From: a virus
Strand: one strand, 5' to 3'
Length of the DNA: 64,000 bases
Virus genome (UHGV): UHGV-1550212
Shown: in pieces, positions 25,233 through 44,220 of the stretch
Layout of the letters: every line of letters begins with the position of its first letter
How positions within the stretch are numbered: position 1 is the stretch's first letter
Notes under the pieces: generated by a model
The model's input: the letters and a program-made list of their open reading frames with translations, nothing else
What the model was told of the DNA's origin: nothing
Database searches by the model: none
Program-made: the position numbers and the translations under genes

Positions 25233-25368
25233 ATGATATGATATATATCAAGTGCAGCAATTGAACAGATTGCAAAAACAATGCTCAGACTGTAAAGTCT
25301 GAGCATTGAACGACTAAATTGTACATCTTCCACAATGATATAGAATCATTGTTAATATTGTATTGATA

Positions 25369-25453
25369 TTGTACAACATGCATTGCATATTTGCAATGAT
25401 ACAACATGCAAAATGCACTTGCACTTTGATGCAAAGTACTGCGTACACAACAT
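25369..25453 (-). promoter_or_regulatory. intergenic regulatory cassette: TTGTACAA motif plus 29-nt element duplicated at 26556..26584
   Basis: 25425..25453 tttgatgcaaagtactgcgtacacaacat is identical to 26556..26584; 25369..25408 nearly identical to 18138..18178. Confidence 0.45.
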
Positions 25454-25482
25454 GCATCGCGTATTTGCATTTTGACGCAATG

Positions 25483-26505: not shown

Positions 26506-26528
26506 GTGTATAATTTTGTATGAGATTA

Positions 26529-26536
26529 TTGTACAA
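26529..26536 (-). promoter_or_regulatory. TTGTACAA promoter-associated motif
   Basis: about 20 nt upstream of ATG 26505. Confidence 0.4.
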
Positions 26537-26612
26537 CATGCAAATGCATGTTGCATTTGATGCAAAGTACTGCGTACACAACATAAAGTACAAGTTTGTC
26601 TTTTGATAGACT

Positions 26613-27674: not shown

Positions 27675-27695
27675 TTTTTAATAGCATATTGATAA

Positions 27696-27703
27696 TTGTA
27701 CAA
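27696..27703 (-). promoter_or_regulatory. TTGTACAA promoter-associated motif
   Basis: 22 nt upstream of ATG 27674. Confidence 0.4.
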
Positions 27704-27760
27704 CATACAAATGCGTTTTGCATTTTTGATGTAGCAATTGCTTGCACAGTTTGCAAAAAA

Positions 27761-27791
27761 GAACCGCTTGCAATCTAATTGCAAGCGGTTC
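27761..27791 (-). terminator. rho-independent terminator downstream of the major capsid gene region
   Basis: 13-bp stem gaaccgcttgcaa / ttgcaagcggttc, 5-nt loop, followed by T6 on the minus strand. Confidence 0.6.
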
Positions 27792-28021: not shown

Positions 28022-29737
28022 TCAAATCCAGCCGTAGTCGCTGTGGATAGCGAAGGTGAGATAAGCCAACTCGGGATACATACCCGTCTCCGCGAGAGCG
28101 TAATCCGACTCAATCAGCAACTTAGGTGCTGCTGTACCCTCAGCGGTTAATTCCACACTTGATGCAAGGTCATATGGCATGAATACACATCCCTGGTTGA
28201 CATTCTCTACGTCAACGCCGTCAGCAGTCTTGTTCGTACGAAGAACGAGAACAGTGTTATCGTTCAGCGGCTGCTTAGGATTGCAATAGATTTTAATGCC
28301 AGCCAAGTCACCTGCATAATACAGGTTCTTGTTGTCCTGTACCAGCGTATTGTCAAGAGCTGCAACAAAGTTCTTCTGAGCCTTAATTGCAACCAAGGCA
28401 ATCGTATTGACCACAGCAGCATCACCAGCACCGAAACGCGACAGGTTGCCAATGATTGTCGAAGCAGCCAGGATACGAGTTGCGATACGAGCCTGACGGG
28501 TAATCTGGTTCTCAGCCGAGCTGTTCGATTCAGCGTTAGGAACCATGCCGAACTCAGCCGTGCGGTCTACACCCATCTTGTCAACGAATGCAGGAGCCTG
28601 GAATTCCGAGAATGCCTTGGCAGTCGAACCAGCGTAGCCAATGTACAAGTTCAGGTTGTAGCCCTGAGCAGCCAACAGCTGAGCATGTGTCGTAACACCA
28701 AGTGCACGCATGCGCTTCAGACCATTGTCGTTGATTGACTGCGTGATTTCATTCTGCATTGCATTCTTGATGATTGCAACTGCATCCAAACCGCGAGCAC
28801 GGAGGTCCTTAACCTGGCGACGAGTCAGAGCACCCCAAGTCTGGTACGTCTTAACTTCGATAGCCTTTGAGAAGGTGCGGAGCTCCAGCATGTTCGGGTT
28901 GCCAGCCTCAGCCTCAGAACGAGACATTGGATTGCCGTCAAGGTCATCCATTGCAGCGAAGCCGTGGATGTGTTCGTCACCAGCCGAAACCAGGTCGAAC
29001 ATAACCTCAGTCATGCCAGTCAGCATGTCAGTTACAGCACCTGTAGCGTCAACCGAGTAGATTTTCGATGCAGCCATTGCAACATCAGCCAACGACTTGT
29101 CAGGAGCAACAGTCATTGCGCCACCAGCGCCAACGGTATATACGCCTTCATTGCGAACTACGAGGTAGCCTGCAACACGCGATACCTGTACGAACGTTAC
29201 CTTGGCAGCAAGCTCACCAGCAGCTGAACCGCCGATGTACAGAACTTGACCCTTCTTGAGGCCATGAACCATTGTCTGCGAAGCAACATTGTACAACTCC
29301 TTCCACTTGATGAGGAAGTAGCGAGGACCCTTGGCTGCGTTCAACTTGCCACCACCATACACGTAGTCTACATAGTCCAGCTGAACCAGCGGGCTGTATA
29401 CAGGAATGGCCGGGAGCAGGTCGAACAGAATCGTGTTGGCTGCGATGTTCATGTTCAGAGCCAGAACATTGGCAGCTACATCGATTGAACCACGCTTACG
29501 CGACGGGTCATGGAACTGTGCTTGCGTACCTGGGTCAGCAGGGAAAGCGACCGGACCTACGCCATTGAGATTCTGCGAATACGTCGACTCAAACGACTCG
29601 TTCATATACTGAACGTTCTGAGCGATTGATGCGAGCAGATACTTCTTAGCGGGCGAAAGCTTGGAGTCAAACGACTCATCAAGAACAGGGCCCCACTTTT
29701 TCAGCAATGCATCAATCTGTGTACGTTTTGCGTTCAT
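28022..29737 (-). CDS. major capsid protein (T4 gp23-like)
   Basis: N-terminus MNAKRTQIDALLKKWGPVLDE parallels the gp23 N-terminal pattern; 571 aa; markedly GC-rich C-ending codon usage; followed by a strong terminator. Confidence 0.7.
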   Translation of the reverse strand: MNAKRTQIDALLKKWGPVLDESFDSKLSPAKKYLLASIAQNVQYMNESFESTYSQNLNGVGPVAFPADPGTQAQFHDPSRKRGSIDVAANVLALNMNIAANTILFDLLPAIPVYSPLVQLDYVDYVYGGGKLNAAKGPRYFLIKWKELYNVASQTMVHGLKKGQVLYIGGSAAGELAAKVTFVQVSRVAGYLVVRNEGVYTVGAGGAMTVAPDKSLADVAMAASKIYSVDATGAVTDMLTGMTEVMFDLVSAGDEHIHGFAAMDDLDGNPMSRSEAEAGNPNMLELRTFSKAIEVKTYQTWGALTRRQVKDLRARGLDAVAIIKNAMQNEITQSINDNGLKRMRALGVTTHAQLLAAQGYNLNLYIGYAGSTAKAFSEFQAPAFVDKMGVDRTAEFGMVPNAESNSSAENQITRQARIATRILAASTIIGNLSRFGAGDAAVVNTIALVAIKAQKNFVAALDNTLVQDNKNLYYAGDLAGIKIYCNPKQPLNDNTVLVLRTNKTADGVDVENVNQGCVFMPYDLASSVELTAEGTAAPKLLIESDYALAETGMYPELAYLTFAIHSDYGWI

Positions 29738-29825
29738 GATTGAATTTGTTTGTTATTGAAAGTGAAACATATATTTCTGTATAATATGTATAGAACTACT
29801 GACATTGATTGAATTGTGAAAATGG

Positions 29826-31217
29826 TCATTTTTCAATCTTTTTGAGCAATGCATGACCACAATCATAGACTTCGACGAAGCCTGACGCAATCATTTGTTG
29901 CCTATCAAACCCATTGTCAAGTAGATGTTCCCATGTCTTTGTATTGTGCCAATGCAATTGAATTGATGATTTATCTGTACTAAGCTGCGGATTTTTTGAA
30001 AAGTCTGCACAGTCAATTTTGTCACCGTTAAGATGCTTACGAATGCATTCAATGACAGTGTCGTGGTCATCCCAGTCCCATATTGTTATGCATACATAGC
30101 CATGTTGTAATGCAATTTGTGTCTTGTCAAAATGACTATCATGTCTCTTTGGCCTATTACGCTTTGTGCGCTTAGTAATATATGCATATGAGTATGTTGA
30201 GTTATGCGAAAATGTTGGATTCACTTCAATCAACAATTTGCAATGTTCATTTTCATAATGCAAGTCATATGAAAAGCCAAGTAGCTTAACATCGTCATAA
30301 CTGCAATCAATGTTAAGCTCTTGTTGCAACTTATCATGCCAAAATTGATTTGGCTTAGATATTATGTTGCCTTGACTGTTTATGCAGTTAGAAGTCATAC
30401 ATGACCATGGCACGCCATAACGCTCAATGTTTGTTTTGTTTGCACTTGCTTGAATTTTTGACAATGGGCCCCATGGATGACCATACTTTGCACGCTTGAC
30501 ATCTGCACCACGTTTAGCAACTTCACGATAATCGCCATAACGCTCTTTTCTTGTAGCAAGCATTTTTGCAATATTGCCCGCGCCACGAGAGCCATATCTA
30601 AGCTCTTTAGTCTTTTGAGCTTTGGCGTAATCACCACAAAATGCATTGCCATATCGAGCAATTTTTGTTGCTTTCATTTTTTCAATGTTGCCTGCACCAG
30701 CATTGCCATAACGTTCAAGTTTTGTTTGCTTGGACAATTCAACATTGCCAAATTTGTTGCCATAACGCACTAATTTTGTTTCTTGTGAACGTTGACGTAT
30801 TTCTTGCACTTGTGCACAGTATTCTACGCCATAGCGTTTTAACATTGTTATTCGTTGATTATATGCACGTTTAATAGGTGCATGCGATGTTCGTTTTGGC
30901 CCATATTTAACAAACTCAGTAGATGCAAGTAATTCATCACGCTCACGTTCAAGTTCTGCAATTCGTTGTTGTATATGGACATCATACACAGGCTGCTCAG
31001 AAATGTCATCAATAGCTGTCGTTTCTAATTTAGCAAGTTTGCGTTTAAGAGCTTTTGTTGTTTGCGTGCAGCTCATTTTTATCAATGCATGTGCATGTCT
31101 GCCACAGTCAAGTACAATGTTAGGCTCATTTGCAAGGCGTTCATCACGTTTACATTCTGCAGCATGTATTGCATCAATAAGTTGTCGTCTCTTTACATTA
31201 TATTCGTCTTGTGTCAT
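29826..31217 (-). CDS. RYG-repeat / Vsr-DUF559-like nuclease (putative homing endonuclease)
   Basis: tandem repeats (KRYG, VRYG, ERYG, ARYG, LRYG, ERYG, AKYG, ERYG); C-terminal FSYDLHY...LLIEVNPTFSHNS...GYVCITIWDWDD...FVEVYDCGH. Confidence 0.55.
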   Translation of the reverse strand: MTQDEYNVKRRQLIDAIHAAECKRDERLANEPNIVLDCGRHAHALIKMSCTQTTKALKRKLAKLETTAIDDISEQPVYDVHIQQRIAELERERDELLASTEFVKYGPKRTSHAPIKRAYNQRITMLKRYGVEYCAQVQEIRQRSQETKLVRYGNKFGNVELSKQTKLERYGNAGAGNIEKMKATKIARYGNAFCGDYAKAQKTKELRYGSRGAGNIAKMLATRKERYGDYREVAKRGADVKRAKYGHPWGPLSKIQASANKTNIERYGVPWSCMTSNCINSQGNIISKPNQFWHDKLQQELNIDCSYDDVKLLGFSYDLHYENEHCKLLIEVNPTFSHNSTYSYAYITKRTKRNRPKRHDSHFDKTQIALQHGYVCITIWDWDDHDTVIECIRKHLNGDKIDCADFSKNPQLSTDKSSIQLHWHNTKTWEHLLDNGFDRQQMIASGFVEVYDCGHALLKKIEK

Positions 31218-31333
31218 AATTATCTGTGTTTAATTTATGTATACTATTGTATTGTAGCATTGACTACTTTGCGCATAACAAAAAAGAAGCCAAGTCATTT
31301 GACTTGGCTTTGAAATGTGTACTTGCAGTTGTA

Positions 31334-31909
31334 TTAGAACTGAGAACCGACAACTCGTGGCACTGCAAGTTCGCTCGTAAGAGTAACTTGGCAAGTGTAA
31401 ATGTCGTCACTATTCTTGTCATGTGAATCAACTGCGCTGATAGGACCCTTAGGGAATCCATTCTTGTACGACGTTACTCTCCAGGCTGTTCCAACCTGAT
31501 TATTTTCAACGAGAATCCAAGAACCTACATAGTTCTTCTTGAGACCCATGGCTCCCGTGAGAGGATTCCTGCGTTTAGCATTCCAACTTTGGAAAGCATT
31601 GTAAATCACAGGGTCATTGGTGTCTGGTCCATGCAAGTTCAGATTCATTGTGATAGTCAGGTTATGAATGTTGCTGACTGTCAATGCTGAGAACTGACGA
31701 GACTGATTTTGTGCAACTTTTTGTGAAACCACATCAGGCGCATTGTCAAGTGTGCCCAAACCTGAAATTGACTGAATTTGCTCATCAATTGTATCTGGAA
31801 TCACAACGCCTGTAGGTGGCATAAGTGTGAGCTCGAACAATGAACTGAACACGGGTTCAGCATATTCGGCAGTCACTTCGCTGTTTTTGATATGCGGTAA
31901 CTTCGGCAT
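31334..31909 (-). CDS. tail tube protein (gp19-like)
   Basis: 191 aa downstream of sheath gene; N-terminal LFELTLMPPTG and C-terminal IYTCQVTLTSELAV parallel gp19 patterns. Confidence 0.5.
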   Translation of the reverse strand: MPKLPHIKNSEVTAEYAEPVFSSLFELTLMPPTGVVIPDTIDEQIQSISGLGTLDNAPDVVSQKVAQNQSRQFSALTVSNIHNLTITMNLNLHGPDTNDPVIYNAFQSWNAKRRNPLTGAMGLKKNYVGSWILVENNQVGTAWRVTSYKNGFPKGPISAVDSHDKNSDDIYTCQVTLTSELAVPRVVGSQF

Positions 31910-31950
31910 GATTGTAATGTGTTATTAAATTGTTCTTGTTTTGTTATGCG

Positions 31951-32646
31951 TCATCGTACAGTGAATGAATTATCGTCATCTTCTGTAGTAGTTGGGTCAT
32001 CAATTACATCGTGGCCAATACCTGACATGGGCTCTGGCTCAGGTTCCGGTTCAGGTTCCGGTTCAGGTTCCGGTTCAGGCTCCGGTTCAGGTTCCGGTTC
32101 AGGTTCCGGTTCAGGTTCCGGTTCCGGTTCCGGTTCAGGTTCCGGTTCAGGTTCCGGCTTGGGCTTTGATGAATAGTTAAACATCTTGTGAATCCATTTG
32201 CACCACCATTTGTGACATGCATGTGCGCCATCATGATAATACGCTTGCAGCTCCATTGGAATTGCATGATATGCTTTGTCATGTGACATACCTTTGAATA
32301 TTCGCAAGTACACATAGCACAAGCAATATGCAATGTAGTACATAAGCGGTGATGCAAGCAGCCACCACCAGCTAAGCACATTGCATGCTGCAAGCACAAT
32401 AAGTACAAGCAACGTCGCAAGTGTTACAAAGATGAATTGCTTTGCATGCACAGCTTCATGCTTCAAGGTCTCAGAGTATCTGCTAAGTGTGTCATCATAT
32501 GACTTATCACTTCTTATGAAGCACATTGCACACAACGACATTGCATAATAATGTGAAAATGGAATGCATGGCTGGTCGATGACAAGCATTGGTCCAGCAA
32601 ACCACAGTCGCCACTGAGATTTATTTGGCAGTGTTGCAGTTTTCAT
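31951..32646 (-). CDS. membrane protein with HExxH motif and long (Pro-Glu)n repeat
   Basis: HEAVH motif next to two hydrophobic helices, then about 25 PE dipeptides and an acidic tail. Confidence 0.5.
32029..32160 (-). repeat. hexanucleotide tandem repeat (ggttcc/ggttca)n encoding (Pro-Glu)n
   Basis: about 22 near-perfect 6-bp units with a 12-bp super-period. Confidence 0.9.
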
Positions 32647-32709
32647 AAATGATGTTTATTGTTTGATGATGAAGACTGAAGAGCCGAAGCTCTTCAGTCT
32701 GTCAATTTG

Positions 32710-35547
32710 CTACTCAGCAGATGCACCTTGCAGTGACAATGTTGTACGATGTACGCCAATTCGAATGCCTTGAGCATTGATGATTTCAGTGTCAAGTACA
32801 ATGAATCCGCGAGCAATCGTTTCATCATCATTGTTGCTGCTATCGCAGACATTCGTGTACGAAACTGCGCCACCGGCTGCAACGATGCCATCCATGAAGT
32901 TGTCTGCTTTTGTTTTGACCTGCAAACGAACATTTGCAGTGTTTCGTTTGTACTGAGCAGACTTCAGATATGGCTCAATGTTGTCAGCGACATAGATGAG
33001 CAACTCAAGATTTTCAATGTAGCTGAATGCGCTGGTGTAAGCTACTTGTGCAGAACGAGATGTCAGCATTGTGATGACGCCTTGGTCTGAACGAGCGAGC
33101 ATGTTCCAACCTGCAGGTTCAAGGTCATCCATATCAGACCCTTCACCTTGCGAGACAATCATGTCAATGTCGGTTACACCAACACCAGACAGTGGCCACT
33201 CATCACCAGCAACGACGTCAAAGACATGCTTGCCTGCTTCTGTATGCTTTCTCATGAAGACATTCGACAAGATACCTGTTGCAGGAATCGTCATATCATC
33301 AATGCCATCATTGTAGCGAACATTGGCTACATATGTGATGAACGGTGCGCCATCAGTTTGACCTGCGAAGCTGAACAACTTGCTGTATGGTTTATCGGTG
33401 TTACCACCTGCAGCACAGTACTTAGACTCAATTGGGTCACCTGCATTGTCCTTAAAGTACGGGTCAGTTGAGCGGAACAAGTCATACTTGGTTGGCAGAG
33501 CAGAGAATGCGATTGCACGTTTTGAATCATTGCAAATCTTTGCAAACTCGTACTTTTGATTTGCTGCAATGTATGTCTTGAATGGGTCAACTACATAACG
33601 CCATTGACATTGATTGTGGTCCATCAAGCTACGATAAACGCCGCCTGAAATGAGAGCTTGCAGTACTTCTGTCTGACGTGCAGATGTGCCATCAACAAAT
33701 TGAGTTGCACGAAGAGCTACACCATGTAGATATGCGCCCTTGAAGAACTTAACTTGGTCAACAAGCTTCGTCAATGACCAAACAGACGCCTGCGAGGCGT
33801 ACTTCATCATTGAGCCATCTGCAAGTTCAAATTCGCCTTCAGCACCTGCAGCTTTGTATGCCAATGCACCAGTGAATTGATATTCAATCAGCACTTTGTT
33901 TTCTGCAAATGCGTCGTAGACATTCTTCTTCTCAAGCGGCGACAAATCAGCTTCAGTGATTGTGATTGGCATACCGCCATACTTGAGTGGCTTGTCTAAT
34001 GGCAGGCCATTTGAATCATATTCAACAAGGTCACCGCCATATGAAATTGTCTCACCTGCAGCTCTTGCTTTACGAGCTTTCGTTGATGAAGTTTCTGCAT
34101 CTGCAGACTCTTCGCCGCCAATTATGACTGTTGAGCCTTGTGGATAGATGAAGTTGCCCTTTGCATCCTGAGGGAATGCTACCTTTGCACCTGATTCGTT
34201 AGTGTACATTGGAATGCCGCCTTCCTTGCCAATGACAGGAACTGCGCGATATTCAGCTACAACTGCGCGACTTGTACAACGTACTGGCGAGCCATCTGCA
34301 CCAATAAAGATGTCGCCAAGCGAAATTGGCAACACTGGTGCAACAAATGAAGTCTTTGAAGCTTCACCTGGCTGCACAAATGGAACCATCACATTAACAA
34401 ACTCAGATGACACGAAGTCCTTGAGCTGTTCTTTTGTGATTGCGACATCTGTTGCTGTTGGCGTGCAGTCAATCTTTTCAGGATTGATGTCAGTTGACGG
34501 ACGAGCCATGCCAAGATATTGATGCGTAGCATCATCAGCAAACAGTGGACCTGCAGCGTCATCTACAGAAATGTAGTTCGAACCAAAGATGTCCACTGCA
34601 CGTTGGAAACGAGCATCTTCGATATCATTCGAATTGTAGAACTCGTCAACCTTGTCAGGGTCAATCTTACACATGATACCCGTCGTGTCTGACACTGCAT
34701 TCACAGCAGTTTCCAATGACAACTTGTTACCATTGATATCAAGCAAGTCAGGAATCAATGAGCCAGATACACGACCCATGTAGCCAGATGCAGCAAGCTT
34801 TGACAATGCCTCAGGACCATACATGCCATCAACTTGTGCACGGATACCATCCTTTGTGAAGTACTTGCCATATACAGTCGAACCTGCAAGTGACTCATAG
34901 TTCGTCAGCTTTTCAGAGAAGAACCAAACGTCAACCATATAGTCTGACACAAGGTCATTGCAATTCACGCCAGGCACATACATTGATGGGAAGCGGTCTT
35001 GAACTGACTTGATATCATAATCATAGCCAGTCAATGTCGTCGGCGTAATGAAGATTGTTGCAGACTTGTTTGTAAGTGTTGAGAAGTTGAGCAGTTGTAC
35101 AGGGTCAGTGCCAACTGCATTGAGCAGATTCAATGGCTCAGCTTTCCAGAAGTTTGATGTATCATAGACATCCTTAAATGGAACGTCTACAGGCGAGCCA
35201 TCTTCTCCTGAGCTGTTTGCAGCAAAAGTCACTCGTGACAACACATCGCTATCATTGAATGAGCGCAAGTTCAACACAAGAATTGGGCTTGTTGCAAGCA
35301 TTTGCTCTGCAATGAGACCAGCGAAACAGCCGGCACGCTCCAAACGCTTGTCACGTTGACCGAAAATTTCATGCAGCTGGTCTGCATCTTCAACAAGCGC
35401 GGCGCGATTGACCGGACCGTTCTTCCACTGGCCAGGCAGCAATCGAAGTGTTTGAGCGGGCAGTGAGTCAAGGCGACTTGCGTCAATGAACAGACGATAT
35501 GTCCCGACTGACTTGAACCGTTCAAATAAAGAAGTGTTATTTGCCAT
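32710..35547 (-). CDS. contractile tail sheath protein (gp18-like)
   Basis: N-terminal pattern PGQWKNGPVNRAALVEDADQLHEIFGQR parallels the gp18 W-GP...FG motif; large protein immediately upstream of tube gene; ATG at 35547. Confidence 0.65.
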   Translation of the reverse strand: MANNTSLFERFKSVGTYRLFIDASRLDSLPAQTLRLLPGQWKNGPVNRAALVEDADQLHEIFGQRDKRLERAGCFAGLIAEQMLATSPILVLNLRSFNDSDVLSRVTFAANSSGEDGSPVDVPFKDVYDTSNFWKAEPLNLLNAVGTDPVQLLNFSTLTNKSATIFITPTTLTGYDYDIKSVQDRFPSMYVPGVNCNDLVSDYMVDVWFFSEKLTNYESLAGSTVYGKYFTKDGIRAQVDGMYGPEALSKLAASGYMGRVSGSLIPDLLDINGNKLSLETAVNAVSDTTGIMCKIDPDKVDEFYNSNDIEDARFQRAVDIFGSNYISVDDAAGPLFADDATHQYLGMARPSTDINPEKIDCTPTATDVAITKEQLKDFVSSEFVNVMVPFVQPGEASKTSFVAPVLPISLGDIFIGADGSPVRCTSRAVVAEYRAVPVIGKEGGIPMYTNESGAKVAFPQDAKGNFIYPQGSTVIIGGEESADAETSSTKARKARAAGETISYGGDLVEYDSNGLPLDKPLKYGGMPITITEADLSPLEKKNVYDAFAENKVLIEYQFTGALAYKAAGAEGEFELADGSMMKYASQASVWSLTKLVDQVKFFKGAYLHGVALRATQFVDGTSARQTEVLQALISGGVYRSLMDHNQCQWRYVVDPFKTYIAANQKYEFAKICNDSKRAIAFSALPTKYDLFRSTDPYFKDNAGDPIESKYCAAGGNTDKPYSKLFSFAGQTDGAPFITYVANVRYNDGIDDMTIPATGILSNVFMRKHTEAGKHVFDVVAGDEWPLSGVGVTDIDMIVSQGEGSDMDDLEPAGWNMLARSDQGVITMLTSRSAQVAYTSAFSYIENLELLIYVADNIEPYLKSAQYKRNTANVRLQVKTKADNFMDGIVAAGGAVSYTNVCDSSNNDDETIARGFIVLDTEIINAQGIRIGVHRTTLSLQGASAE

Positions 35548-35653
35548 GTTCGTTATCGTATTTGTTGTAAATTGTGAAATGTTGCTTTGTTTGATTATAA
35601 CTTGATATATGTATGTATATGATGACATCAAACATGTTGTTGACCAAAATCAA

Positions 35654-35681
35654 AAAGACCAGCTCAATTGAGCTGGTCTTT
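35654..35681 (-). terminator. terminator hairpin (aaagaccagctcaattgagctggtcttt)
   Basis: perfect palindrome identical in core to 22852..22879. Confidence 0.55.
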
Positions 35682-35704
35682 CAAATGCTGTTTAACTGTC
35701 ATCA

Positions 35705-38700
35705 TTAGCCACGAATCAAGTCAACCAAGCGTTGCTGTTCAGGAGTCAATGAAGACTTTCCGCTGCCATCAATGTTTTCGTTAACGAAACCGACTGGCTG
35801 CTTAGTCGAATATGACTTGATTGCAGCCCAGTTACGTGAACGATAGAATGCTGCGACATCTGACTCATTTACGAAAGTGCGAACTGCTGCCTGAGTAGCA
35901 ATCAATGACTTCTGTTCAGGAGTCAAGCTTTCATAAATGTACTTGTATGCTGTTGGCATATGCTTCAGATACAATGGTGTATGGTCAATTGGCTGCAGGT
36001 TCTCATCCAAGACTGCTACACCAGCAGCATCATAGCGAGTTGCAAGCTGCTTTGTTTGACGACGCAATGCAGCAATTTCATGCTTGATGCTTGTCAAGCA
36101 TTCATCAGTTGCTTGTGCGCCAAGATATGTGCGAAGCATATCAGACAGCATCTTCTGATTTGCATCGGTCAAATCACCTGCAACTTCAATGCCAGTCAGC
36201 TGGCCATCTTTGCTGATGACTACAGAAATTGTAGAACCGTCGCGTTCAACTGTGCGGAAGTCAAAGTCATCGTATGACTTATCCTTAAGGACAGCTTCAC
36301 GAATATTGTCATCTACGCCTTCATTGACCATGCTCATGCATTCCTCAACATCTACGTCAAGTCCAAGCTCTTCTGCAGTTTCAGCAATCTTTTCTGCAAG
36401 CTGAGCTTTATTCTCAACTTTGTCAAGGTCTGCTGCATCTGATACAGCATCGACAAGTTCATCTGCCTGTGCACGAGTAATCGTTGAAGCATCAACAAGG
36501 CCATCAATGATTTGCTCTACATCTGCAGGTGTCGGCTTGTTGTCTTCTGCTGCTTCATTGATAAACTTGGCAGTCTTTGGCTTGTAGCTAAGCTTGCCCT
36601 CATTGACCATCTCATCCTGCAATTGTGCAGCGATGTATGCAATTAGCAATGACTTGTTGGCTTCAAGTTCATCGACTGCTTCAGCAGACTTTTGAGCTTT
36701 GATGAGTTCATCGTAAGCTGCTGCAACTTTGTCATCCATCGTAGACTTGTCAGGGTCAATGTTTTTGATGCATGTCTTGACAATATCATCCTGATAGAAC
36801 TTGTCAATGATTGATTTGTCTGTGTCAGAGTATGTTGCATATAACTTGTCTGCGACAATTGATTCATTGACAATCTTGCCTGGCTCAGATGCAGGAACAA
36901 GAGTCCACTTACCATCAACTTCTGCAACAATGCCTGAAGTCGATTCGCCATAAGTGACTGTTAGACGAGTGCCTGCTTCATTGTTGTCAATTGTGTTGAC
37001 GACTGCTTCGAATTCATTACCATCAGCGTCATAGATTTTGATGCTGTCACCGACAGCAGCTTCATCTACTGGTGCTTCGAAGAACTCTTTGACAAAGTTC
37101 TGAACATCAACGGGCAGACTGTCATATGGCTGTGATGCATAGTACTCTGAGTCAGCATCAAGGTAATTCTTTGAAAGCAGCCAAGCTTTTCGAGTAGCAA
37201 CATCTGCAGCATTCCAAGCATCGACTGACTCATCGCAGTCATCGACAAGTGCAAGATACTCATGGTCTTTCTTGTCATCAAAACGAAGAGTAATCTTTTG
37301 TTCGGGCTTGCCAGCAGGCCAAACTTCGACTTCAATTTCTGTAGTGCCTGCAACATTTTTGACTGTGCCTACAACAATCTTGTCGCCTTTGTTGATGCCA
37401 TTAGACATGTCGTATGGTGCTTCAATAGATTCATCTGTCGACTGAGCTCGAATTGCTGCAGCAATAGCATTACGAGATTCATTGTCGAACATCTCCCATG
37501 TAGCATTCGCAGCATCTTCTACACCAATCTTGTCTTTGCCAACCTGCTCAATCAACTGATTGCGGTCAGCTACTGAAGCATTGTACCACCAGTCTGCAGC
37601 AGTGTCAGATGCTTCATTGACAAATGCATTGAGCAATGCAGTCTGAACGTTATCAGGCAACTTGTCAAAGTCAACAAGCTCTACGTCATCTGCAATATTT
37701 GCTTGCTTTGCTGTTGCTTTACGGCCATCTGCATCAGACTTATTCCAGTCATCAATGAATGCCTGTTCAGCAGCAGATTCATCAAGCGCTTTGACAGTTT
37801 CATATCGACCGTCATACAGCATGTACTTATCGCCTTCTTTGATGGCTACAGACTCCTTGCCATTGTACTTGAATGACACTTTGTCACCATTGAAGCCGGT
37901 CAATTCAGCTGTGATTTTATCGCCATTCTTGTCATACACTTCAACTGTCTGCTCTTCATCAATGTTCAAGTGCTTCTTGAGTGCATCTACAAGTTCTTTG
38001 CCAAGAGCGTCTTCATTGTCATGGGCTTGCTGGAAGCAATCTTCATCTGACTTGTCAGGCTGAACAGCTTTCAATGCTGTTGCCCGATTAAGCATTGACA
38101 TCGTGCCCCAGATTGACATGAAGCTTTTGCCCTCATTGTCTTGTGCTTCGGCTTCGTCAATTGCATCAATGTCTTTCTCAAGCATTGCATGATGAGCAAT
38201 GTCGATGCCAGACCATTTCGTCTTTGCATTATATGGCAAACCAATATGCTTCGACAAAATTGACTGACGTTGGTCATCTGTGAATGAATCCCAAGCTTCG
38301 CCAAGTGTTGCATGCTTTGCTTCATCAGCAGCAAATTCTGTTTCAATCTTAAGTTTGTGGTCCTTGTCAATCAGTTGCCACTTGGCATTTGGACGATAGA
38401 ACTCAGACAATGACAGCTTGTCAAGAATGACTTTGCGTTCGTCATCTGACAATTCGTCCCACTTGTTGTCAGCAGATTCATCGATGTTGACGAGTTCTTT
38501 CTCAATGAGATTCTTGTCAAGCATTGCATCAATGATTGGCTGCTGGGCTTCTGCTGGAATGTCTTTGAACGACTTAATTGCAATGACAGCGTCTTTGTCA
38601 TCAACTTTAGCAGCTTCAACAATTTCTGTCTTCACTTCATCAGTCAAAGCGCCCCAAGCAGCATCGAGATAATCAAAGTTGAGAGCTTCATCACATTCAA

Positions 38701-39820
38701 CAATGCCATACTGCTTTGCAATGTCATTGTGCTTGTCAAGATTGCTGTTGAGTTCAGCTTCAATTGCTGCTTTGATGTCATCAATTGACTTATCTTCAAC
38801 TTCAAGCTCAAGAGCTTTTGCAAGTTCAGTCAATGCTGCATCATCAAGCTTGCTAATGTCATAAGGCTTAGCATCTTCATTTGTGAAGTCAATGCCAAGC
38901 AAAGACATTGCTTGCTTCTTGTTTTCTTCTGAGAGTGCATCGAATGCAGTTGCAAGACCGACATCGGTGTAGTCGCACCCAACTTCGTCAAGTAATGCTT
39001 CGACTTTCTGGATGTTTTCTACGCCAACTTCGTTAGCATCAGCATTGTTGTATGCCTCAACAAAACGTGATTGGTTTGTCATGGTAGTGAAATCTTCTAT
39101 TGATTCGTTTATGAGTTGCTGTTTGAGTGCATCCAATGATGCTGAGCCAATCAATGCATCAGGGAATAGCTTCTGCAACATACCTGTACGTGCAAGCTCA
39201 ATCAATTGGAGCATCAATGAGTTTGGCGAGTCTTCGTCATCTACAGATTCACAAATGAGAGTGTCTTTTGATTCATTAACTGAACCGACAAGATTGAACT
39301 CTGCATTCGAAAAGCCTGGCTGTGCAACCAAATCAAATGTCACGATTTTGAGAAGCTGAACTCTGCCAGTAGTTGGATTGACTACGCCAAGGGCGCGACT
39401 TGAAATGAACAATGGCGAACCTGCTGTAACAATTGCCCATGCAATGCGACCTGCAGGCGTATCAAGAATTGTAATGTAGCCTTCAAAACGTCGTTTTTCA
39501 GGATTCCATTCAATACTGTCCAATCTGTGGCTTACGTTTCCATAACGTACAGTACGTCGCTTAACATGTTCAAGTTCGCCAAGAAGTCGCTTTGCTTTAA
39601 TTGCAGGTTGCAATGCCTGTACTTGAGCAAAGTAATTCTCAAAGTCATACGTGCGCCCATTTTCGTTTTTCTGGTCCATGTATGCATACACGCCAAAAAG
39701 ACGACCAAGTGCGCCGCTTGGCACATGAGAATCTTCTGCTTCAACTACAAACTGACAATCTGCGCGGCTTTCAAGCATAAGTGAGGCTTCCCTGCCTTTG
39801 TACTTATATGACTTTGCCAT
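35705..39820 (-). CDS. prohead protease-like N-terminal domain fused to ~1200-aa acidic scaffold-like region
   Basis: N-terminal ~190 aa with GELEHVKRR and LFISSRALGVV (gp21-like His/Ser context); remainder highly acidic with nine aliphatic-N-E motifs; ATG at 39820. Confidence 0.5.
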   Translation of the reverse strand: MAKSYKYKGREASLMLESRADCQFVVEAEDSHVPSGALGRLFGVYAYMDQKNENGRTYDFENYFAQVQALQPAIKAKRLLGELEHVKRRTVRYGNVSHRLDSIEWNPEKRRFEGYITILDTPAGRIAWAIVTAGSPLFISSRALGVVNPTTGRVQLLKIVTFDLVAQPGFSNAEFNLVGSVNESKDTLICESVDDEDSPNSLMLQLIELARTGMLQKLFPDALIGSASLDALKQQLINESIEDFTTMTNQSRFVEAYNNADANEVGVENIQKVEALLDEVGCDYTDVGLATAFDALSEENKKQAMSLLGIDFTNEDAKPYDISKLDDAALTELAKALELEVEDKSIDDIKAAIEAELNSNLDKHNDIAKQYGIVECDEALNFDYLDAAWGALTDEVKTEIVEAAKVDDKDAVIAIKSFKDIPAEAQQPIIDAMLDKNLIEKELVNIDESADNKWDELSDDERKVILDKLSLSEFYRPNAKWQLIDKDHKLKIETEFAADEAKHATLGEAWDSFTDDQRQSILSKHIGLPYNAKTKWSGIDIAHHAMLEKDIDAIDEAEAQDNEGKSFMSIWGTMSMLNRATALKAVQPDKSDEDCFQQAHDNEDALGKELVDALKKHLNIDEEQTVEVYDKNGDKITAELTGFNGDKVSFKYNGKESVAIKEGDKYMLYDGRYETVKALDESAAEQAFIDDWNKSDADGRKATAKQANIADDVELVDFDKLPDNVQTALLNAFVNEASDTAADWWYNASVADRNQLIEQVGKDKIGVEDAANATWEMFDNESRNAIAAAIRAQSTDESIEAPYDMSNGINKGDKIVVGTVKNVAGTTEIEVEVWPAGKPEQKITLRFDDKKDHEYLALVDDCDESVDAWNAADVATRKAWLLSKNYLDADSEYYASQPYDSLPVDVQNFVKEFFEAPVDEAAVGDSIKIYDADGNEFEAVVNTIDNNEAGTRLTVTYGESTSGIVAEVDGKWTLVPASEPGKIVNESIVADKLYATYSDTDKSIIDKFYQDDIVKTCIKNIDPDKSTMDDKVAAAYDELIKAQKSAEAVDELEANKSLLIAYIAAQLQDEMVNEGKLSYKPKTAKFINEAAEDNKPTPADVEQIIDGLVDASTITRAQADELVDAVSDAADLDKVENKAQLAEKIAETAEELGLDVDVEECMSMVNEGVDDNIREAVLKDKSYDDFDFRTVERDGSTISVVISKDGQLTGIEVAGDLTDANQKMLSDMLRTYLGAQATDECLTSIKHEIAALRRQTKQLATRYDAAGVAVLDENLQPIDHTPLYLKHMPTAYKYIYESLTPEQKSLIATQAAVRTFVNESDVAAFYRSRNWAAIKSYSTKQPVGFVNENIDGSGKSSLTPEQQRLVDLIRG

Positions 39821-39953
39821 ATTTGAATTGTGTTTGAAAGTTTGCAAATTTTTGTTGTTATTGATTATATATGCAAGGCAGACTTGTGTGTTGAAAAATT
39901 GCAAAATTTCAGTTATGTGTACATAACAAAACCATCCAAATCAATTCAATTAT

Positions 39954-40622
39954 ATGTCAACAAACAATCATGGCAAGCTCAGATTGCTTGAGCTCAAAGA
40001 AGCACAGCCATATGACACGCTCAAAATTGGCATTGACGTATCAGTAGATGCTACTGGCATGTGCATGATATTTGGCAAAACTGTTGCGCTGTTCAAATTT
40101 ACGCCGCACTTGCCACCAGAAGATGACAGTTCAGATGATGTGAATTTTGTGCAGTTCAACAAAATCTATCTGCAAACATCATCTTCTGCAAGAGAACGCT
40201 CAAAAATGCATACTCGACACACACTTGCAAACAAGATTGTTGACGCGATTGATATGTTCATGCAGGAAATTTGGCCGAATAGCCCAGCAAACATTCAAAT
40301 TGTTACAGAAGGGTCTGCATATGGCTATGCCGCACACAACTCTAACAGCTTGGTAGAACTTGCTGAATTTAGAAGCGTGATTTTAGAAAGAGTCTATCAT
40401 CGTTGGCCACTCGGCACGCATCTAAGTCTTGACGTTATTGCGCCAAAATCATTGAAGAAACATGCAACCGGTGACGGCAAAGCAGACAAACTAAAGATGA
40501 TTGAAGCTGCAATTGCTAAGTTGACACACATTCATTGGGCAGGCAAAATTGACGATGAATGCGATGCATTGCATCTTTGTCTGTATGAGCCATTAAGCAA
40601 TCCTGAACCACGACTTTGGTGA
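39954..40622 (+). CDS. RuvC-like Holliday junction resolvase
   Basis: KIGIDVSVDATG (catalytic Asp region), IVTEGSAYG, KSLKKHATGDGKADKLKM and DECDALHLCLY parallel RuvC motifs. Confidence 0.55.
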   Translation: MSTNNHGKLRLLELKEAQPYDTLKIGIDVSVDATGMCMIFGKTVALFKFTPHLPPEDDSSDDVNFVQFNKIYLQTSSSARERSKMHTRHTLANKIVDAIDMFMQEIWPNSPANIQIVTEGSAYGYAAHNSNSLVELAEFRSVILERVYHRWPLGTHLSLDVIAPKSLKKHATGDGKADKLKMIEAAIAKLTHIHWAGKIDDECDALHLCLYEPLSNPEPRLW

Positions 40623-40788
40623 CATTACATCGTACAACATAAGTTTCATTTCAAAAACTCAATTCATATGCAAATCCCTCGTAACTGGGGGTGGGGCACA
40701 ACAAGCCCTCCAAGTCAAAGACGGCGCATTTGACATCACTGTGCGCTTTACATGTGAAAGCTCTACAGCTGCACAATATAAGTACATC

Positions 40789-41049
40789 ATGGTGCACATT
40801 GATGGCTTACATGCAGCAGGTCAATATGCATATCTTGGCGTATCATTGTCACAGACAGGCGTCATATACCATGCAAAGTGGACATCTGGTTCTGGTACAG
40901 GACCTCAAGGCCCATTTAAGCCAGGCACAATTATCAGATTTGGCTTGCACAATTCAGTGTCATCAACTACAACGCCTCGTGCAATGCAAGCAATAGAAGT
41001 TGACGCAAAGCAATTTGGGCAAAATTATGCTATATTGTTTCAGCTGTAG
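40789..41049 (+). CDS. hypothetical small protein (track ORF 40741..41049 with GTG start; first ATG at 40789)
   Basis: ORF track; preceded by GGGGGTGGGG run. Confidence 0.3.
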   Translation: MVHIDGLHAAGQYAYLGVSLSQTGVIYHAKWTSGSGTGPQGPFKPGTIIRFGLHNSVSSTTTPRAMQAIEVDAKQFGQNYAILFQL

Positions 41050-41092
41050 TATTGATTGCAATGGTATGCACTCGTTAACATAAGCATCAAAA

Positions 41093-41121
41093 AACTCCGA
41101 CAGAATTGTTCTGTCGGAGTT
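41093..41121. terminator. bidirectional terminator hairpin
   Basis: 13-bp stem aactccgacagaa / ttctgtcggagtt with A-run before and T-rich after; between convergent genes. Confidence 0.5.
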
Positions 41122-41167
41122 TGCTGTTGTAAACAGCTGTCTTAATGTTTTGCAATCTATAGCAAAT

Positions 41168-42961
41168 TCAATTTTGTGTTGCAACGTCATCAGTCTTGTT
41201 ATCAACTGGCTCATCGTCGACATGTGTATCAACATCAATGCCAGAAGCTGCAGCAAGTGAAACATCATTAGCGACGCCTTGTTGTTCAAGTTGTTGTTGA
41301 GCTTGCTTTGTTTGAATTGCGACAAGTCTTGCAGCTTCCATTGCAAGCTTAAGATTCTCTTGAAGTTCGATATCAAGCTGTTCAGCATTAGCTTGCATGT
41401 CTTCTTTGCTTAAGCCAAGATACTTGTTGATAAGCCAATTGCTTGAGAAGAATGGGCGTTCAGTATCAGACATGTTAAGTGAACGAACAAGTGAACTGCG
41501 AATGTCTTCGATTGTATGAATACGCTTCTGAAGCAATGTGAGCTCCATTTGCGTCTGGAAATGATTGTATCTATTGAATTTGAGTTTTAGCGCATTCAAA
41601 ACTTCATTGTCGCCAATGTAGTTATTGTTTTTGATGCACATCAAAACATACACAGGCTTCAATATGATTGCAATGCCAAATCTACGCATCAAAGCTGAAA
41701 TAAAGATTGCAAAACGACGCTCATCACGCTGAATTGACTCTTCAGAAACATTCCACATGCCACCGCCATCATCGAATCTGCTTAGAGGCAGCTTTGACAG
41801 ACGTTGTAAGTTATTGCGGAAATATGTGACTGCTGAAGTATCAGATAAGTCAGGCATGCCTGTGCCAATTGTTTGAATGTTGGGTTTGCCTGCATTAGTG
41901 TCAGCCATCCAAAATTCGCTATTGAAAGGCACAGATGCTTCGCCATTAACTTGGAGTTCGCCGGTTTGATTGTCGAATTCAATTTTTTCGTGGTACTTAT
42001 TCATTGCTTTACGCAATGTTTCCTGTGCAGCAGCTTTCAGTTTACCGCCAGTAGGAATTGTGATAAGTGAACGAAAACGAGAAGCTGTCGTAGCATATGC
42101 AATGCGACTTCGCTCCAAAATCCTGAGCAAGTTGAATGCACGAACAAGACGCTCAAAATATGACATAGACCCAACCATGTCATCGTTCCACTGCAAATAT
42201 GCTACTTGCGAATCAAGCAAGTTGATTTTTTCTGAGTTGTTAGACACAAATGCTGGTGCTTTGACATCAAACATTGTATGTGTCTTGAACATATCTTGTT
42301 GAGACTTATCATACTGCCAGAAGAACATTTCACCCTTCTTCATAGGCGTCAATGCAAATGCATTCAACTTTTTGATGCCAACAATATCAGTCGGCTCATC
42401 TGCATTATCAAACACAATCTCATAGCCAAGTCTGCCTCGTACAAGATATTCACGCAACAATGCTCTAACATCTTGTTTGCGAGGTTCAGAGTTCAACCCA
42501 TTGAATGCATACATCAAATAGACTTGCTTGAATGCATCCATAAAGTCATCTTTGATTGTCTGCTTTGCTGTGTCGTCTATCTCAAGTTTATCGATGTCAC
42601 AAAAATCAGGCTCGCAAAAGAAATTACTATCGGAATTGAACACGATGCACTCATCAATCATGCGGTCAAGAATGTCGTCGAGTTCCGGTTCTGCACTTAA
42701 GATGTCATATTTTTTGGCTCGAAGATAACTTGTCAATCCAAAAAGATTCTTTTTAGGTGACTCTTTCTGATTGAACACGTCATCAGTAGACAACACAACA
42801 ACTTCTTGGTCATTGATGTTATGCTCACCTGTATATGCTGCTTTCTCCAAATCTGCATCAGACCCAGACTTGTGCACATTCAATTGCTGCAATGGACTGT
42901 CTTTCGGAATTGAGCGTAATGCATCAGTTCCCAGATATGTTCGTTTGGTCTTTTTAGCCAT
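41168..42961 (-). CDS. portal protein (gp20-like), putative
   Basis: 597 aa, basic N-terminus and acidic C-terminal tail; segment KDDFMDAFKQVY...RALLREYLVRGRLGYEIV fits the portal pattern; located upstream of protease/scaffold. Confidence 0.5.
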   Translation of the reverse strand: MAKKTKRTYLGTDALRSIPKDSPLQQLNVHKSGSDADLEKAAYTGEHNINDQEVVVLSTDDVFNQKESPKKNLFGLTSYLRAKKYDILSAEPELDDILDRMIDECIVFNSDSNFFCEPDFCDIDKLEIDDTAKQTIKDDFMDAFKQVYLMYAFNGLNSEPRKQDVRALLREYLVRGRLGYEIVFDNADEPTDIVGIKKLNAFALTPMKKGEMFFWQYDKSQQDMFKTHTMFDVKAPAFVSNNSEKINLLDSQVAYLQWNDDMVGSMSYFERLVRAFNLLRILERSRIAYATTASRFRSLITIPTGGKLKAAAQETLRKAMNKYHEKIEFDNQTGELQVNGEASVPFNSEFWMADTNAGKPNIQTIGTGMPDLSDTSAVTYFRNNLQRLSKLPLSRFDDGGGMWNVSEESIQRDERRFAIFISALMRRFGIAIILKPVYVLMCIKNNNYIGDNEVLNALKLKFNRYNHFQTQMELTLLQKRIHTIEDIRSSLVRSLNMSDTERPFFSSNWLINKYLGLSKEDMQANAEQLDIELQENLKLAMEAARLVAIQTKQAQQQLEQQGVANDVSLAAASGIDVDTHVDDEPVDNKTDDVATQN

Positions 42962-42981: not shown

Positions 42982-44220
42982 CTATACACGTCTTGTCAAT
43001 TTGACATGACCGCAGTCATCTGCAAGCAGTTTAACATGACCGCAGTCATCTGCAAGCAGTTTAACATGACCGCAGTCATAAACTTTGACGAAGCCTGCAT
43101 CAATCATAGTTTGCTCATCATGATTGCAGTCAAGCACATGTGTATGAGTTTTCATATTGTACCAATGCAAGCCGATGTAAAAGTCAGTCTTGTGATATGC
43201 GTCAGTATATAATCGTGGGTCATCTATAGACAAATCAAGTTCGACGCAGTCAGCAGTCTGCAGTTGTTCTGTGTCAGTTAGCAATGATTTGACAAGCTTG
43301 ACTACAGCATCAAATGACATCCAATCAAATACAGTGATGCATCTATAGCCATGTTGCATAGCTGTGCAACATTTGTCAAAATGCGTAGTTGATGCAATTG
43401 GCTTGTTGACTGTAGAACGACCAGTAGCAAAATCAAATGCAAATGTGCTGTTATGCGTAAATGACGGATTGACATCAATTAGCAAATTGTCATATCGCAA
43501 ATCAAATGCGTAGCAATCTACGTCATGTTCATATTCAAAATCAACACCAGTATGCTCAAGTAGCATATCATGTAACAAGACGTTTGGCTTTGTAATGATT
43601 TTGCCATTTGCAAGTCTGCACTTCTGAGTTAAACAATGCCAAGGCACGCCATATCGTTCAAGTGTAGTGTTGCTAATCTTCTGCAAATTGCCAAAACCGC
43701 TGCCATAGCGTAATTGCTTTGTGACTGTTTGCTGTGCAACATTACCATTAGCATGACCAAACTTGTTGATGTTTGTTTGCTTGCGCTTAGCATTTGCAGT
43801 TGCAATATCAACAGATTCAAGTGACTCAAGAAATTTTGACATGTCGCCAAGCCCATTGCCATATAGTTGACGTTTAGTGTCAACAACTTTTGTCATGTTC
43901 CAGTGCTTGTAGCCATATCGAGCTTCTTTTGTCGCAAATGCTTTGTCATAGTTGCCAAAGCCTGCATGACCATATCGTTCAACTTTTGTTGCAGCAATTT
44001 TGTCTGAGACTTCTTTAAGCTGATGTTTGTATTCAACGCCAAACTTGCGCAAATTTGATATGCGAATGTTGAACACTCGTTTGACTTTTGTATGCGTAGA
44101 GCCTTTGTCAAGCTTTGCATATGGAATTTGTGCAAGTGCAGCGTCTCTTTCATCTTCAAGCTCTCTTATTCGAGCTTCAAGTGCATCACCAGCCAAAACT
44201 TCTATGCGTATAGTCTGCAT
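42982..44220 (-). CDS. RYG-repeat / Vsr-DUF559-like nuclease with C-terminal tandem decapeptide repeat
   Basis: N-terminal ALEARIRELEDERD coiled coil, RYG repeats, LLIDVNPSFTHNS...GYRCITVFDW...FVKVYDCGH; C-terminus DCGHVKLLAD repeated three times. Confidence 0.55.
   Translation of the reverse strand: MQTIRIEVLAGDALEARIRELEDERDAALAQIPYAKLDKGSTHTKVKRVFNIRISNLRKFGVEYKHQLKEVSDKIAATKVERYGHAGFGNYDKAFATKEARYGYKHWNMTKVVDTKRQLYGNGLGDMSKFLESLESVDIATANAKRKQTNINKFGHANGNVAQQTVTKQLRYGSGFGNLQKISNTTLERYGVPWHCLTQKCRLANGKIITKPNVLLHDMLLEHTGVDFEYEHDVDCYAFDLRYDNLLIDVNPSFTHNSTFAFDFATGRSTVNKPIASTTHFDKCCTAMQHGYRCITVFDWMSFDAVVKLVKSLLTDTEQLQTADCVELDLSIDDPRLYTDAYHKTDFYIGLHWYNMKTHTHVLDCNHDEQTMIDAGFVKVYDCGHVKLLADDCGHVKLLADDCGHVKLTRRV
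43001..43080 (-). repeat. 30-bp tandem direct repeat (about 2.7 copies) at the 3' end of the nuclease gene
   Basis: ttaacatgaccgcagtcatctgcaagcagt repeated. Confidence 0.85.

Follow-up and report, generated by a model that had tools for sequence, protein, structure and literature searches.

Introduction

Core structural gene order is among the most conserved features of T4-like and jumbo phages, and is used to annotate and classify metagenomic contigs. In T4, the terminase, sheath, tube, portal, protease, scaffold and capsid genes form one run of the late cluster (17-18-19-20-67-68-21-22-23-segD-24). The cultured phages of the PAU group share the order late sigma factor, head completion protein, DNA end protector, portal, protease and capsid, and their sheath and tube genes adjoin the large terminase gene, or stand a short distance off, and are followed by tail genes. 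'Group 2.2' of Iyer et al. 2021 (PMC7824862), which is related to T4, includes two phages of the set considered here, PTm1 and Lak-B8, so T4 can be regarded as a legitimate but remote comparator, with the phage's own group as the informative reference.

Here we describe a stretch of 64,000 nucleotides of the virus genome UHGV-1550212 (hereafter the window), in which a three-gene cassette encoding the tail sheath, a small membrane protein and a tail-tube-fold protein lies between the genes for the prohead protease and the major capsid protein (MCP). A first-pass annotation had called this a module rearrangement relative to T4, with sheath and tube between the protease/scaffold and capsid genes; the T4 order it used for reference (sheath, tube, portal, protease, scaffold, capsid) is correct (18-19-20-67-68-21-22-23), and the rearrangement itself is borne out by synteny with relatives and by a vacated donor site. 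We conclude that the cassette very probably left a terminase-side site for the protease|capsid junction, and did so recently, in an ancestor of the clade that includes the window.

Results

A sheath–tube cassette within the head block

With a single exception, the long open reading frames (ORFs) of positions 28022–42961 lie on the minus strand. Read in that direction, the portal comes first, followed by a RuvC-like gene (itself on the plus strand), the protease and its long acidic extension, sheath, membrane/PE protein, tube-fold protein, endonuclease-like protein and MCP. This is the order of the first-pass annotation, save for a nuclease insert placed after the portal gene, which we discarded (see below).

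The cassette comprises three genes over ~4.4 kb (31287–35682), with terminator-like hairpins at both bounds. The upstream hairpin (35653–35682, minus strand; 13-bp stem plus T run) lies between the protease stop and the sheath start and ends 25 nucleotides ahead of the sheath ATG; the entire protease|sheath junction measures 76 bp and holds this hairpin alone, without an insert. The downstream hairpin (31287–31310, minus strand; 10-bp stem plus T run) follows the tube gene and is conserved in the sister strain (L003). The first gene encodes a tail sheath of 972 amino acids (aa) (ORF 32710–35631, ATG at 35628, minus strand; phrog_34521, 2e-112), which in tblastn matched the annotated sheaths of pT24, PAU, PTm1 and MA9V and is 50–55% identical over its full length to the terminase-adjacent sheaths of three relatives (L096, L098, L103). 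An exact-sequence look-up of the window's sheath protein returned no record.

The second gene (31951–32646, minus strand) encodes a 231-aa membrane protein with an HExxH motif and a (PE)n linker. Homologs stand between sheath and tube in L096 (28% identical), L111 (33%) and L098 (a short form), and the C-terminus of the protein is present upstream of the tube gene in L101 and L105. Because related genes occupy this place in L096, L098 and L111, the membrane/PE gene appears to be an ancestral member of the cassette, and not an insert. In the loci compared (window 31951–32646, L003 7127–7876, L101 2–118, L096 9193–9951), the protein has two or more hydrophobic segments, an HExxH motif that reads HEAVH in the window and HESYH in L096, and a conserved C-terminal tail (GIGHD.IDDP...FTVR). 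The (PE)n linker varies in length (the protein has 231 aa in the window and 249 aa in the sister strain), is a PD/PE mix in L101, and is replaced by a coiled coil in other relatives. This architecture resembles that of a membrane-anchored protein with an extended spacer.

The third gene (31334–31909, minus strand) encodes a 191-aa protein for which a fold search returned the tube-type beta-sandwich fold of T4 gp19, Hcp and Pvc1. Comparison of its sequence profile with PDB and Pfam gave nothing significant, the fold search alone being informative. Assigned thus at the fold level, the protein may be a tube initiator or terminator paralog of the gp54/gp48/gp3 type, although the major tube subunit is the likeliest identity. 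The sheath and portal calls of the first-pass annotation were upheld by homology searches, and the tube call at the fold level.

Sheath and tube are adjacent on the same strand with the sheath first, as in T4, and one small membrane-protein gene stands between them. Neither is a terminase gene found immediately upstream of the sheath nor does the tube immediately precede the portal, and a search of the 64-kb window for a terminase found none. The T4-type run of portal, protease, scaffold and capsid free of tail genes is also interrupted, with the 4.4-kb cassette and a 1.4-kb endonuclease-like gene intervening from the protease stop (35705) to the capsid start (29737).

Relatives and the ancestral layout

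No GenBank phage matched the 15-kb region in a megablast search, and thus no close cultured relative was found. The tblastn searches with the MCP, the sheath and the tube-fold protein matched essentially only MA9V-1/2, PAU, PTm1/PTm5, pT24, MaF61, Lak phages and uncultured megaphages, with one Vibrio phage record added to the same set by the sheath; the best cultured-phage matches of the three proteins were MA9V-1/2, PAU, PTm1/5, pT24 and Lak phages. The hosts in this set are Chryseobacterium (MA9V), Sphingomonas (PAU), Tenacibaculum (PTm1/PTm5/pT24), Flavobacterium (MaF61) and Prevotella (Lak). With the nearest cultured homologs of its core structural proteins in the PAU/MA9V/pT24 group, the window can be assigned, on sequence grounds, to an uncultured jumbo myovirus of that group, distantly T4-like.

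Two arrangements recur among the relatives. First, the head block is contiguous, with no tail gene between protease and capsid, in ten lineages: MA9V-2, PAU and pT24; the IMG/VR relatives L004/L009 (MCP 74% identical to that of the window); L012, L014 and L015; and L122 and L123 (MCP 75–76%). Its order is late sigma factor, head completion, end protector, portal, protease(/scaffold) and capsid, and the window keeps both this order and the orientation, broken up by the cassette and by endonuclease-like genes. Second, the sheath and tube genes lie beside the large terminase gene, followed by tail genes, in at least nine lineages (pT24, MA9V-2, PAU, L096, L098–L100, L107, L109/L110, L111/L112, L103). 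The tail series after the tube consists of proteins of ~350 aa and ~80 aa and two of ~1000–1300 aa. Tubes from five of the metagenomic lineages (L096, L098–100, L107, L109/110, L111/112) are 60–66% identical to that of the window, and T4 carries 18-19 in the same relative order as these terminase-side lineages.

The cassette between protease and capsid was found only in the window's clade, which consists of four near-identical assemblies and a relative with 88% capsid identity. The sister strain (IMG/VR contig UViG_3300045988_149023) is collinear with the window at 91–98% nucleotide identity, the endonuclease slots excepted, and repeats the protease|sheath junction; the derived order is also present in L105 (Logan) and L106 (ENA). 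The sheath–PE–tube junctions, and the tube–capsid junction with or without a homing-endonuclease-like gene, recur in four more independent assemblies. The most diverged members, L101/L102 (tube 85% and MCP 88% identical to the window; nucleotide identity 72–81%), carry the C-terminus of the membrane protein, the tube gene and the capsid gene consecutively, with nothing between them. The synteny comparison that the first-pass annotation had proposed as a check thus confines the rearranged order to this clade.

The vacated donor site

The terminase of the window's lineage was reached by a protein search with the terminase of a relative, followed by contig look-ups, which led to the ENA contig L113. 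Scanning the terminase alignment against IMG/VR returned generic T4-like terminases only, and not the sister contig; scanning for the terminase Walker motif GRQIGKTTTT with a degenerate DNA pattern turned up a single contig, of an unrelated lineage. Since the L113 terminase is 94% identical to that of the sister contig (positions 1870–3858), with 93–94% nucleotide identity over 12.6 kb, L113 belongs to the window's lineage.

In L113, the terminase gene stands beside a DUF7487 gene (46% identical to the endonuclease-like gene of the window at 29826–31217), followed by p362, p84, p1238 and p1267, and neither sheath nor tube is present there. These four genes are homologs of the post-tube genes of L098, L107 and L109, with p362 being 49–57% identical. 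The sister contig agrees: next to its terminase gene, which is separated by ~55 kb from the capsid block, the available 1.87 kb holds an adjoining DUF7487 gene and not the sheath. The placement of sheath and tube beside the large terminase, found in nine relatives, is therefore absent from the window's lineage, and a donor site without sheath or tube in both L113 and the sister contig indicates translocation, and not duplication.

The terminase-side DUF7487 genes of the sister contig (L114 1–1219) and L113 share just their N-terminal half; beyond it, up to the contig end, L114 has no similarity to L113. This may reflect another allele swap, or may be the cause of the assembly break at that point. 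Elsewhere, in L111 (8091–9260) and L112 (3089–4258), the terminase gene and the sheath gene, which is divergently oriented, are separated by a gene that overlaps the terminase start and whose 389-aa product has a TnsA-like endonuclease N-terminal domain (PF08722), so a different kind of selfish nuclease would appear to occupy the terminase|sheath junction in this lineage.

A probable conservative, intragenomic move

The ancestor would have had two blocks. One would have run from the large terminase to sheath, tube and tail genes, with a small membrane protein between sheath and tube in several lineages; the other would have been late sigma factor, head completion, DNA end protector, portal, protease(/scaffold) and MCP. 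The cassette would then have left the terminase-proximal site and inserted into the short intergenic region between protease/scaffold and capsid. Such a move would have been intragenomic and conservative, with gene order and orientation kept, and it presumably came about when two intergenic sites underwent a double-strand break or illegitimate recombination; across the group, the protease|capsid acceptor site varies in length and content. DUF7487 genes would afterwards have spread into many junctions, among them the donor site that the cassette had left and, in just part of the strains, the newly formed boundary of tube and capsid. As judged from the lineages compared, a single conservative relocation is bracketed between 76% and 88% capsid identity. 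Bringing sheath, tube and capsid, which are three of the most abundant virion proteins, into one late-transcribed region was presumably either neutral and tolerated or mildly useful.

In the 74% relative (L004 9238–10000), the protease|capsid junction contains a 178-aa ORF without a homolog in any fetched locus, and ~230 bp with three ~50-bp direct repeats (TGTCA..TTCTGCCGACTGCCACAAAAT). From these contents, the acceptor junction would already have been a variable region.

Endonuclease-like genes and their possible role

The gene between tube and capsid (29826–31217, minus strand) encodes a free-standing homing-endonuclease-like protein of 463 aa (Pfam DUF7487, 1.9e-9; phrog_3339, 4.5e-6). Its slot is polymorphic: the 463-aa allele of the window is matched by a 429-aa allele in the sister strain (L003; 29% identical) and a 439-aa allele in L105, and the slot is empty in L101. 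The flanks are 94–98% identical in nucleotide sequence among the window, L003 and L105, and 72–81% between the window and L101. The variable segment spans 29893–31263, with homology between window and sister resuming within the last 22 codons of the DUF7487 gene. The tube|capsid slot thus shows behaviour expected of homing endonuclease genes: alleles are replaced between near-identical genomes, and the gene is missing from L101. Because of this absence, and of the allelic differences among strains 95–98% identical, the insertion of the gene at this slot would postdate the translocation.

Further copies are found in the window. One DUF7487 paralog lies between the DNA-end-protector and portal genes (42982–44220, minus strand), in a slot that L004/L009 leave empty and that is not the same in the sister strain. 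A pair at 25483–27674, beyond the 3' end of the capsid gene and absent from L004, consists of a DUF7487 paralog (26613–27674, minus strand; 353 aa; DUF7487, 5.7e-7) and an HNH-type gene sharing the C-terminal domain of the DUF7487 family (25483–26565, minus strand; 360 aa; phrog_3339, 2.4e-41; phrog_559 (HNH), 1.3e-35). Another copy is at 48405–49604. L004/L009 lack the RuvC-like gene, the HNH-type gene and all four DUF7487 paralogs at the corresponding positions.

The first-pass annotation had predicted insertions at each junction. For the cassette itself, this holds at tube|capsid, with a later and polymorphic endonuclease-like gene, and fails at protease|sheath; of its two junctions, only one carries an insertion, and that one is secondary in time. 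In a wider sense the description is apt: set against the 74% relative L004/L009, the window has an additional gene of selfish appearance, from among the six just listed, at most boundaries of conserved head genes, although not at the protease|sheath junction.

The conserved motifs of the family (YDL..LLIE[IV]NPT.SHN, GY.CI..FDWD and VYDCGH) suggest a nuclease-like core, not matched to a fold. Searching two of the endonuclease-like proteins against PDB sequences gave no match, and Pfam gave DUF7487 alone. By their distribution, the DUF7487 genes behave like free-standing homing endonuclease genes, and we consider them putative nucleases.

These genes could have taken part in the move. A DUF7487 endonuclease may have cut at, or next to, the terminase|sheath or the tube|tail junction, with ectopic or illegitimate repair carrying the cassette to protease|capsid and the donor-site gene remaining as the footprint, which would be a mechanistic refinement of the translocation and not an alternative to it. 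Its appeal is that a DUF7487 paralog lies exactly at the old place of the cassette in L113 (and partly in L114), that the four paralogs of the window flank many conserved structural genes, and that they behave as mobile, with presence/absence, allele replacement in 95–98% identical strains and end-points inside the last 22 codons. However, L101, the most diverged rearranged member, has tube and capsid adjacent without an endonuclease gene or remnant, and the acceptor-site copy must therefore have arrived after the move; the protease|sheath junction lacks such a gene; the copy at the donor site might just as well have entered a junction that was empty by then; and nuclease activity rests on PHROG names and the D...E-x-N...H-like motif, with neither a Pfam nuclease domain nor a PDB match. 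On balance we regard endonuclease-driven relocation as conceivable but rather unlikely. That DUF7487 homing endonucleases relocated essential neighbours in this way, by cleavage beside the terminase and ectopic repair, leaving a footprint in the vacated site, is accordingly offered as a tentative and doubtful proposal; if true, it would document how selfish nucleases had reshaped the core gene order of T4-like phages, which is otherwise very stable.

A ~35-nucleotide motif (minus strand AAATGCAACATGCATTTGCATGTTGTACAATAATC; copies ~75–90% identical) occurs at 27691–27725, 26524–26558 and 25363–25475, each time closely ahead of a start codon, those of the DUF7487 gene 26613–27674, the HNH-type gene 25483–26565 and the next small ORF, and is possibly a promoter or regulatory element travelling with mobile genes. 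At the 3' end of the paralog 42982–44220, three tandem 30-nucleotide repeats (42997–43086) encode a reiterated C-terminal peptide, (K)LLADDCGHV, which contains the conserved DCGH motif. Rfam and tRNA scans of the whole window found nothing, and hence no recognisable intron or RNA gene in the spacers, and the T4 late-promoter motif TATAAATA was not enriched in the window (2 found vs 1.4 expected).

Probable native origin of the cassette

We compared the divergence of the cassette from its relatives with that of other genes. Measured against the same relatives, the sheath (50–55% identity) and tube (60–66%) have diverged about as far as the terminase (55–59%), portal (60%) and p362 (49–57%), and the G+C content of sheath and tube is 0.44–0.455 both in the window and in the L098 orthologs at the ancestral position. 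Because its divergence equals that of the rest of the genome and its G+C that of orthologs in the ancestral position, the cassette appears to be native. Modular exchange is common in phages, and a self-contained unit bounded by terminator hairpins might have been gained horizontally from another phage, with subsequent loss of the native terminase-side sheath and tube; but these values, the retention of the clade-specific membrane protein between sheath and tube, and the need for two events instead of one make a foreign replacement improbable. That the order of the window is ancestral and that of the other lineages derived, or that it is an assembly chimera, is hardly credible, as the terminase–sheath–tube and portal–protease–capsid arrangements are each common to at least nine lineages, including the most distant, PAU and pT24, as T4 shares the 17-18-19 and 20-23 adjacencies, so that parsimony runs counter to the window's order, and as the derived junctions are repeated in assemblies that were made independently of one another, with samples and pipelines that differ (IMG/VR, ENA, Logan), which excludes a chimera.

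Head genes around the cassette

The portal protein (41168–42961, minus strand; 597 aa) is of the T4 gp20 type (Pfam Portal_T4 PF07230, 3.8e-59; phrog_213, 5e-54) and is 60% identical to that of L004/L009. Between portal and protease lies a RuvC-like Holliday-junction-resolvase gene (39954–40622, plus strand; phrog_159, 2e-13; Pfam RuvC at 22.2 bits, exactly at the cut-off), which is also present in the sister strain and absent at the same slot in L004/L009 and L123. From the portal stop to the RuvC stop extends a convergent spacer of 545 bp (40623–41167) with no recognisable gene and patchy 76% nucleotide identity to the sister strain.

The supposed nuclease insert after the portal gene corresponds to a 141-aa ORF (40963–41388), which we rejected: it overlaps the portal 3' end by 220 nucleotides in another frame, has no family match, and is broken in the sister strain, otherwise 91–98% identical. 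Scanning the ORFs in 40623–41388 for a nuclease signature or family found none.

The portal|protease junction (39905–41167) is variable in the group. The window has the RuvC-like gene and the 545-bp spacer, L004/L009 and L123 have nothing, and elsewhere there are a 377-aa gene (L122), an 82-aa gene (MA9V-2), three small genes (PAU) or a 578-aa gene (pT24). The RuvC start is overlapped by a near-consensus sigma-70-like promoter (minus strand 39976–39949; 11/12 matches) directed towards the protease gene.

The protease gene (35705–39904, minus strand) is a 1399-codon ORF with a probable ATG at 39820. Its N-terminal ~350 aa would form the prohead protease, with residues ~39–349 matching phrog_207, 'head maturation protease' (4.2e-32); the Pfam Peptidase_S77 (PF03420) score of 22.5 bits falls under the 27-bit gathering cut-off, and the homologs in L122/L123 match Peptidase_S80 only weakly or faintly. 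The remaining ~1050 aa form an acidic extension (17–27 acidic residues per 100; 35705–39000) with at least 7 copies of a loose motif, W-x-x-[LF]-[TS]-D-[DE]-x(3-4)-I, every ~45–100 residues. Homologs are similarly long in L004 (1345 aa), MA9V-2 (1207 aa) and L122/L123 (1545–1563 aa), and PAU has separate protease and scaffold genes. Of the protease–scaffold fusion named in the first-pass annotation, the protease with its long acidic extension was borne out by the phrog_207 match; the scaffold or core function of the extension is presumed from composition and position.

The MCP (28022–29737, minus strand; 571 aa) is of the gp23 type (Pfam Gp23, 1.8e-10; phrog_28442, 2e-117) and is 35–37% identical to the MCPs of MA9V, PAU and pT24. 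A hairpin scan placed a terminator-like hairpin after the capsid gene (27761–27791, minus strand; 14-bp stem plus T run).

Discussion

We regard the gene identities, the derived state of the order, the empty donor site and the polymorphism of the endonuclease-like genes as established. Several points weigh against the translocation as drawn here. The 191-aa protein is assigned at the fold level alone, gp19, gp54 and gp3 share that fold, and the model has a predicted local distance difference test (pLDDT) score of 66, that is, moderate confidence; the 'scaffold' label of the protease extension has no homology support. The donor- and acceptor-site evidence comes from different strains of one lineage, linked solely via the sister contig, which ends 1.87 kb past the terminase, and the single-copy state of sheath and tube is seen in no single complete genome. 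A search for lineages with MCP identity of 76–88%, as possible duplication intermediates, found none, leaving mechanism and timing bracketed and not observed, and any functional benefit of the new position is conjectural.

The change of gene order is real and recent, yet it belongs to the ordinary shuffling of phage genomes. It gives a known gene layout in a variant form that is well documented, carried by a new, uncultured phage of an established group, and reveals no new kind of gene or system. A clean recent translocation can be reconstructed: donor and acceptor sites are identified, as are an 'empty' relative and the later endonuclease insertion. The case cautions annotators that tail genes may sit within a head operon, and offers a system in nature for studying the reshaping of phage genomes by mobile endonuclease genes.

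Compared with the cultured PAU-group phages, the window has the same homologs for the gp23-type capsid protein (35–37% identical), the gp20-type portal and the putatively S77-type protease, as well as for the sheath, the tube-fold protein, the gp2-like end protector, the gp4-like head completion protein and the late sigma factor; the long protease fusion is common to the window and MA9V-2. Protein identity is only 25–39%, and much closer relatives are solely metagenomic contigs. Unlike in these cultured phages, sheath and tube lie between protease and capsid in the window, and the terminase-side site of its lineage is taken by a homing-endonuclease-like gene.

The DUF7487 genes recall the seg and mob genes of T-even phages, as both are intergenic between conserved essential genes, have several paralogs per genome, and show presence/absence and allele differences between nearly identical genomes. 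The T4 Seg enzymes are GIY-YIG proteins, whereas the DUF7487 family has N-terminal DUF7487 repeats and its own, different C-terminal domain, and its cleavage activity is putative; for the window's genes, a link to the relocation of neighbouring structural genes is a conjecture.

Against the T4 late cluster, the window has the same families for portal, protease, capsid, sheath and tube fold. In both, the sheath precedes the tube and a free-standing gene of the homing endonuclease kind, putatively so in the window, stands beside the capsid gene (segD in T4). Where T4 has a terminase gene abutting the sheath, in the lineage of the window ~55 kb of the sister contig separates the terminase from the capsid block; a single polypeptide of 1371 aa comprises the protease and the presumed scaffold, unlike in T4; and the single run of T4 is broken, with portal and protease split from the capsid gene by the sheath–tube cassette. 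Taken together, these comparisons point to one translocation of a three-gene cassette, and not to a general reshuffle of the T4 order.

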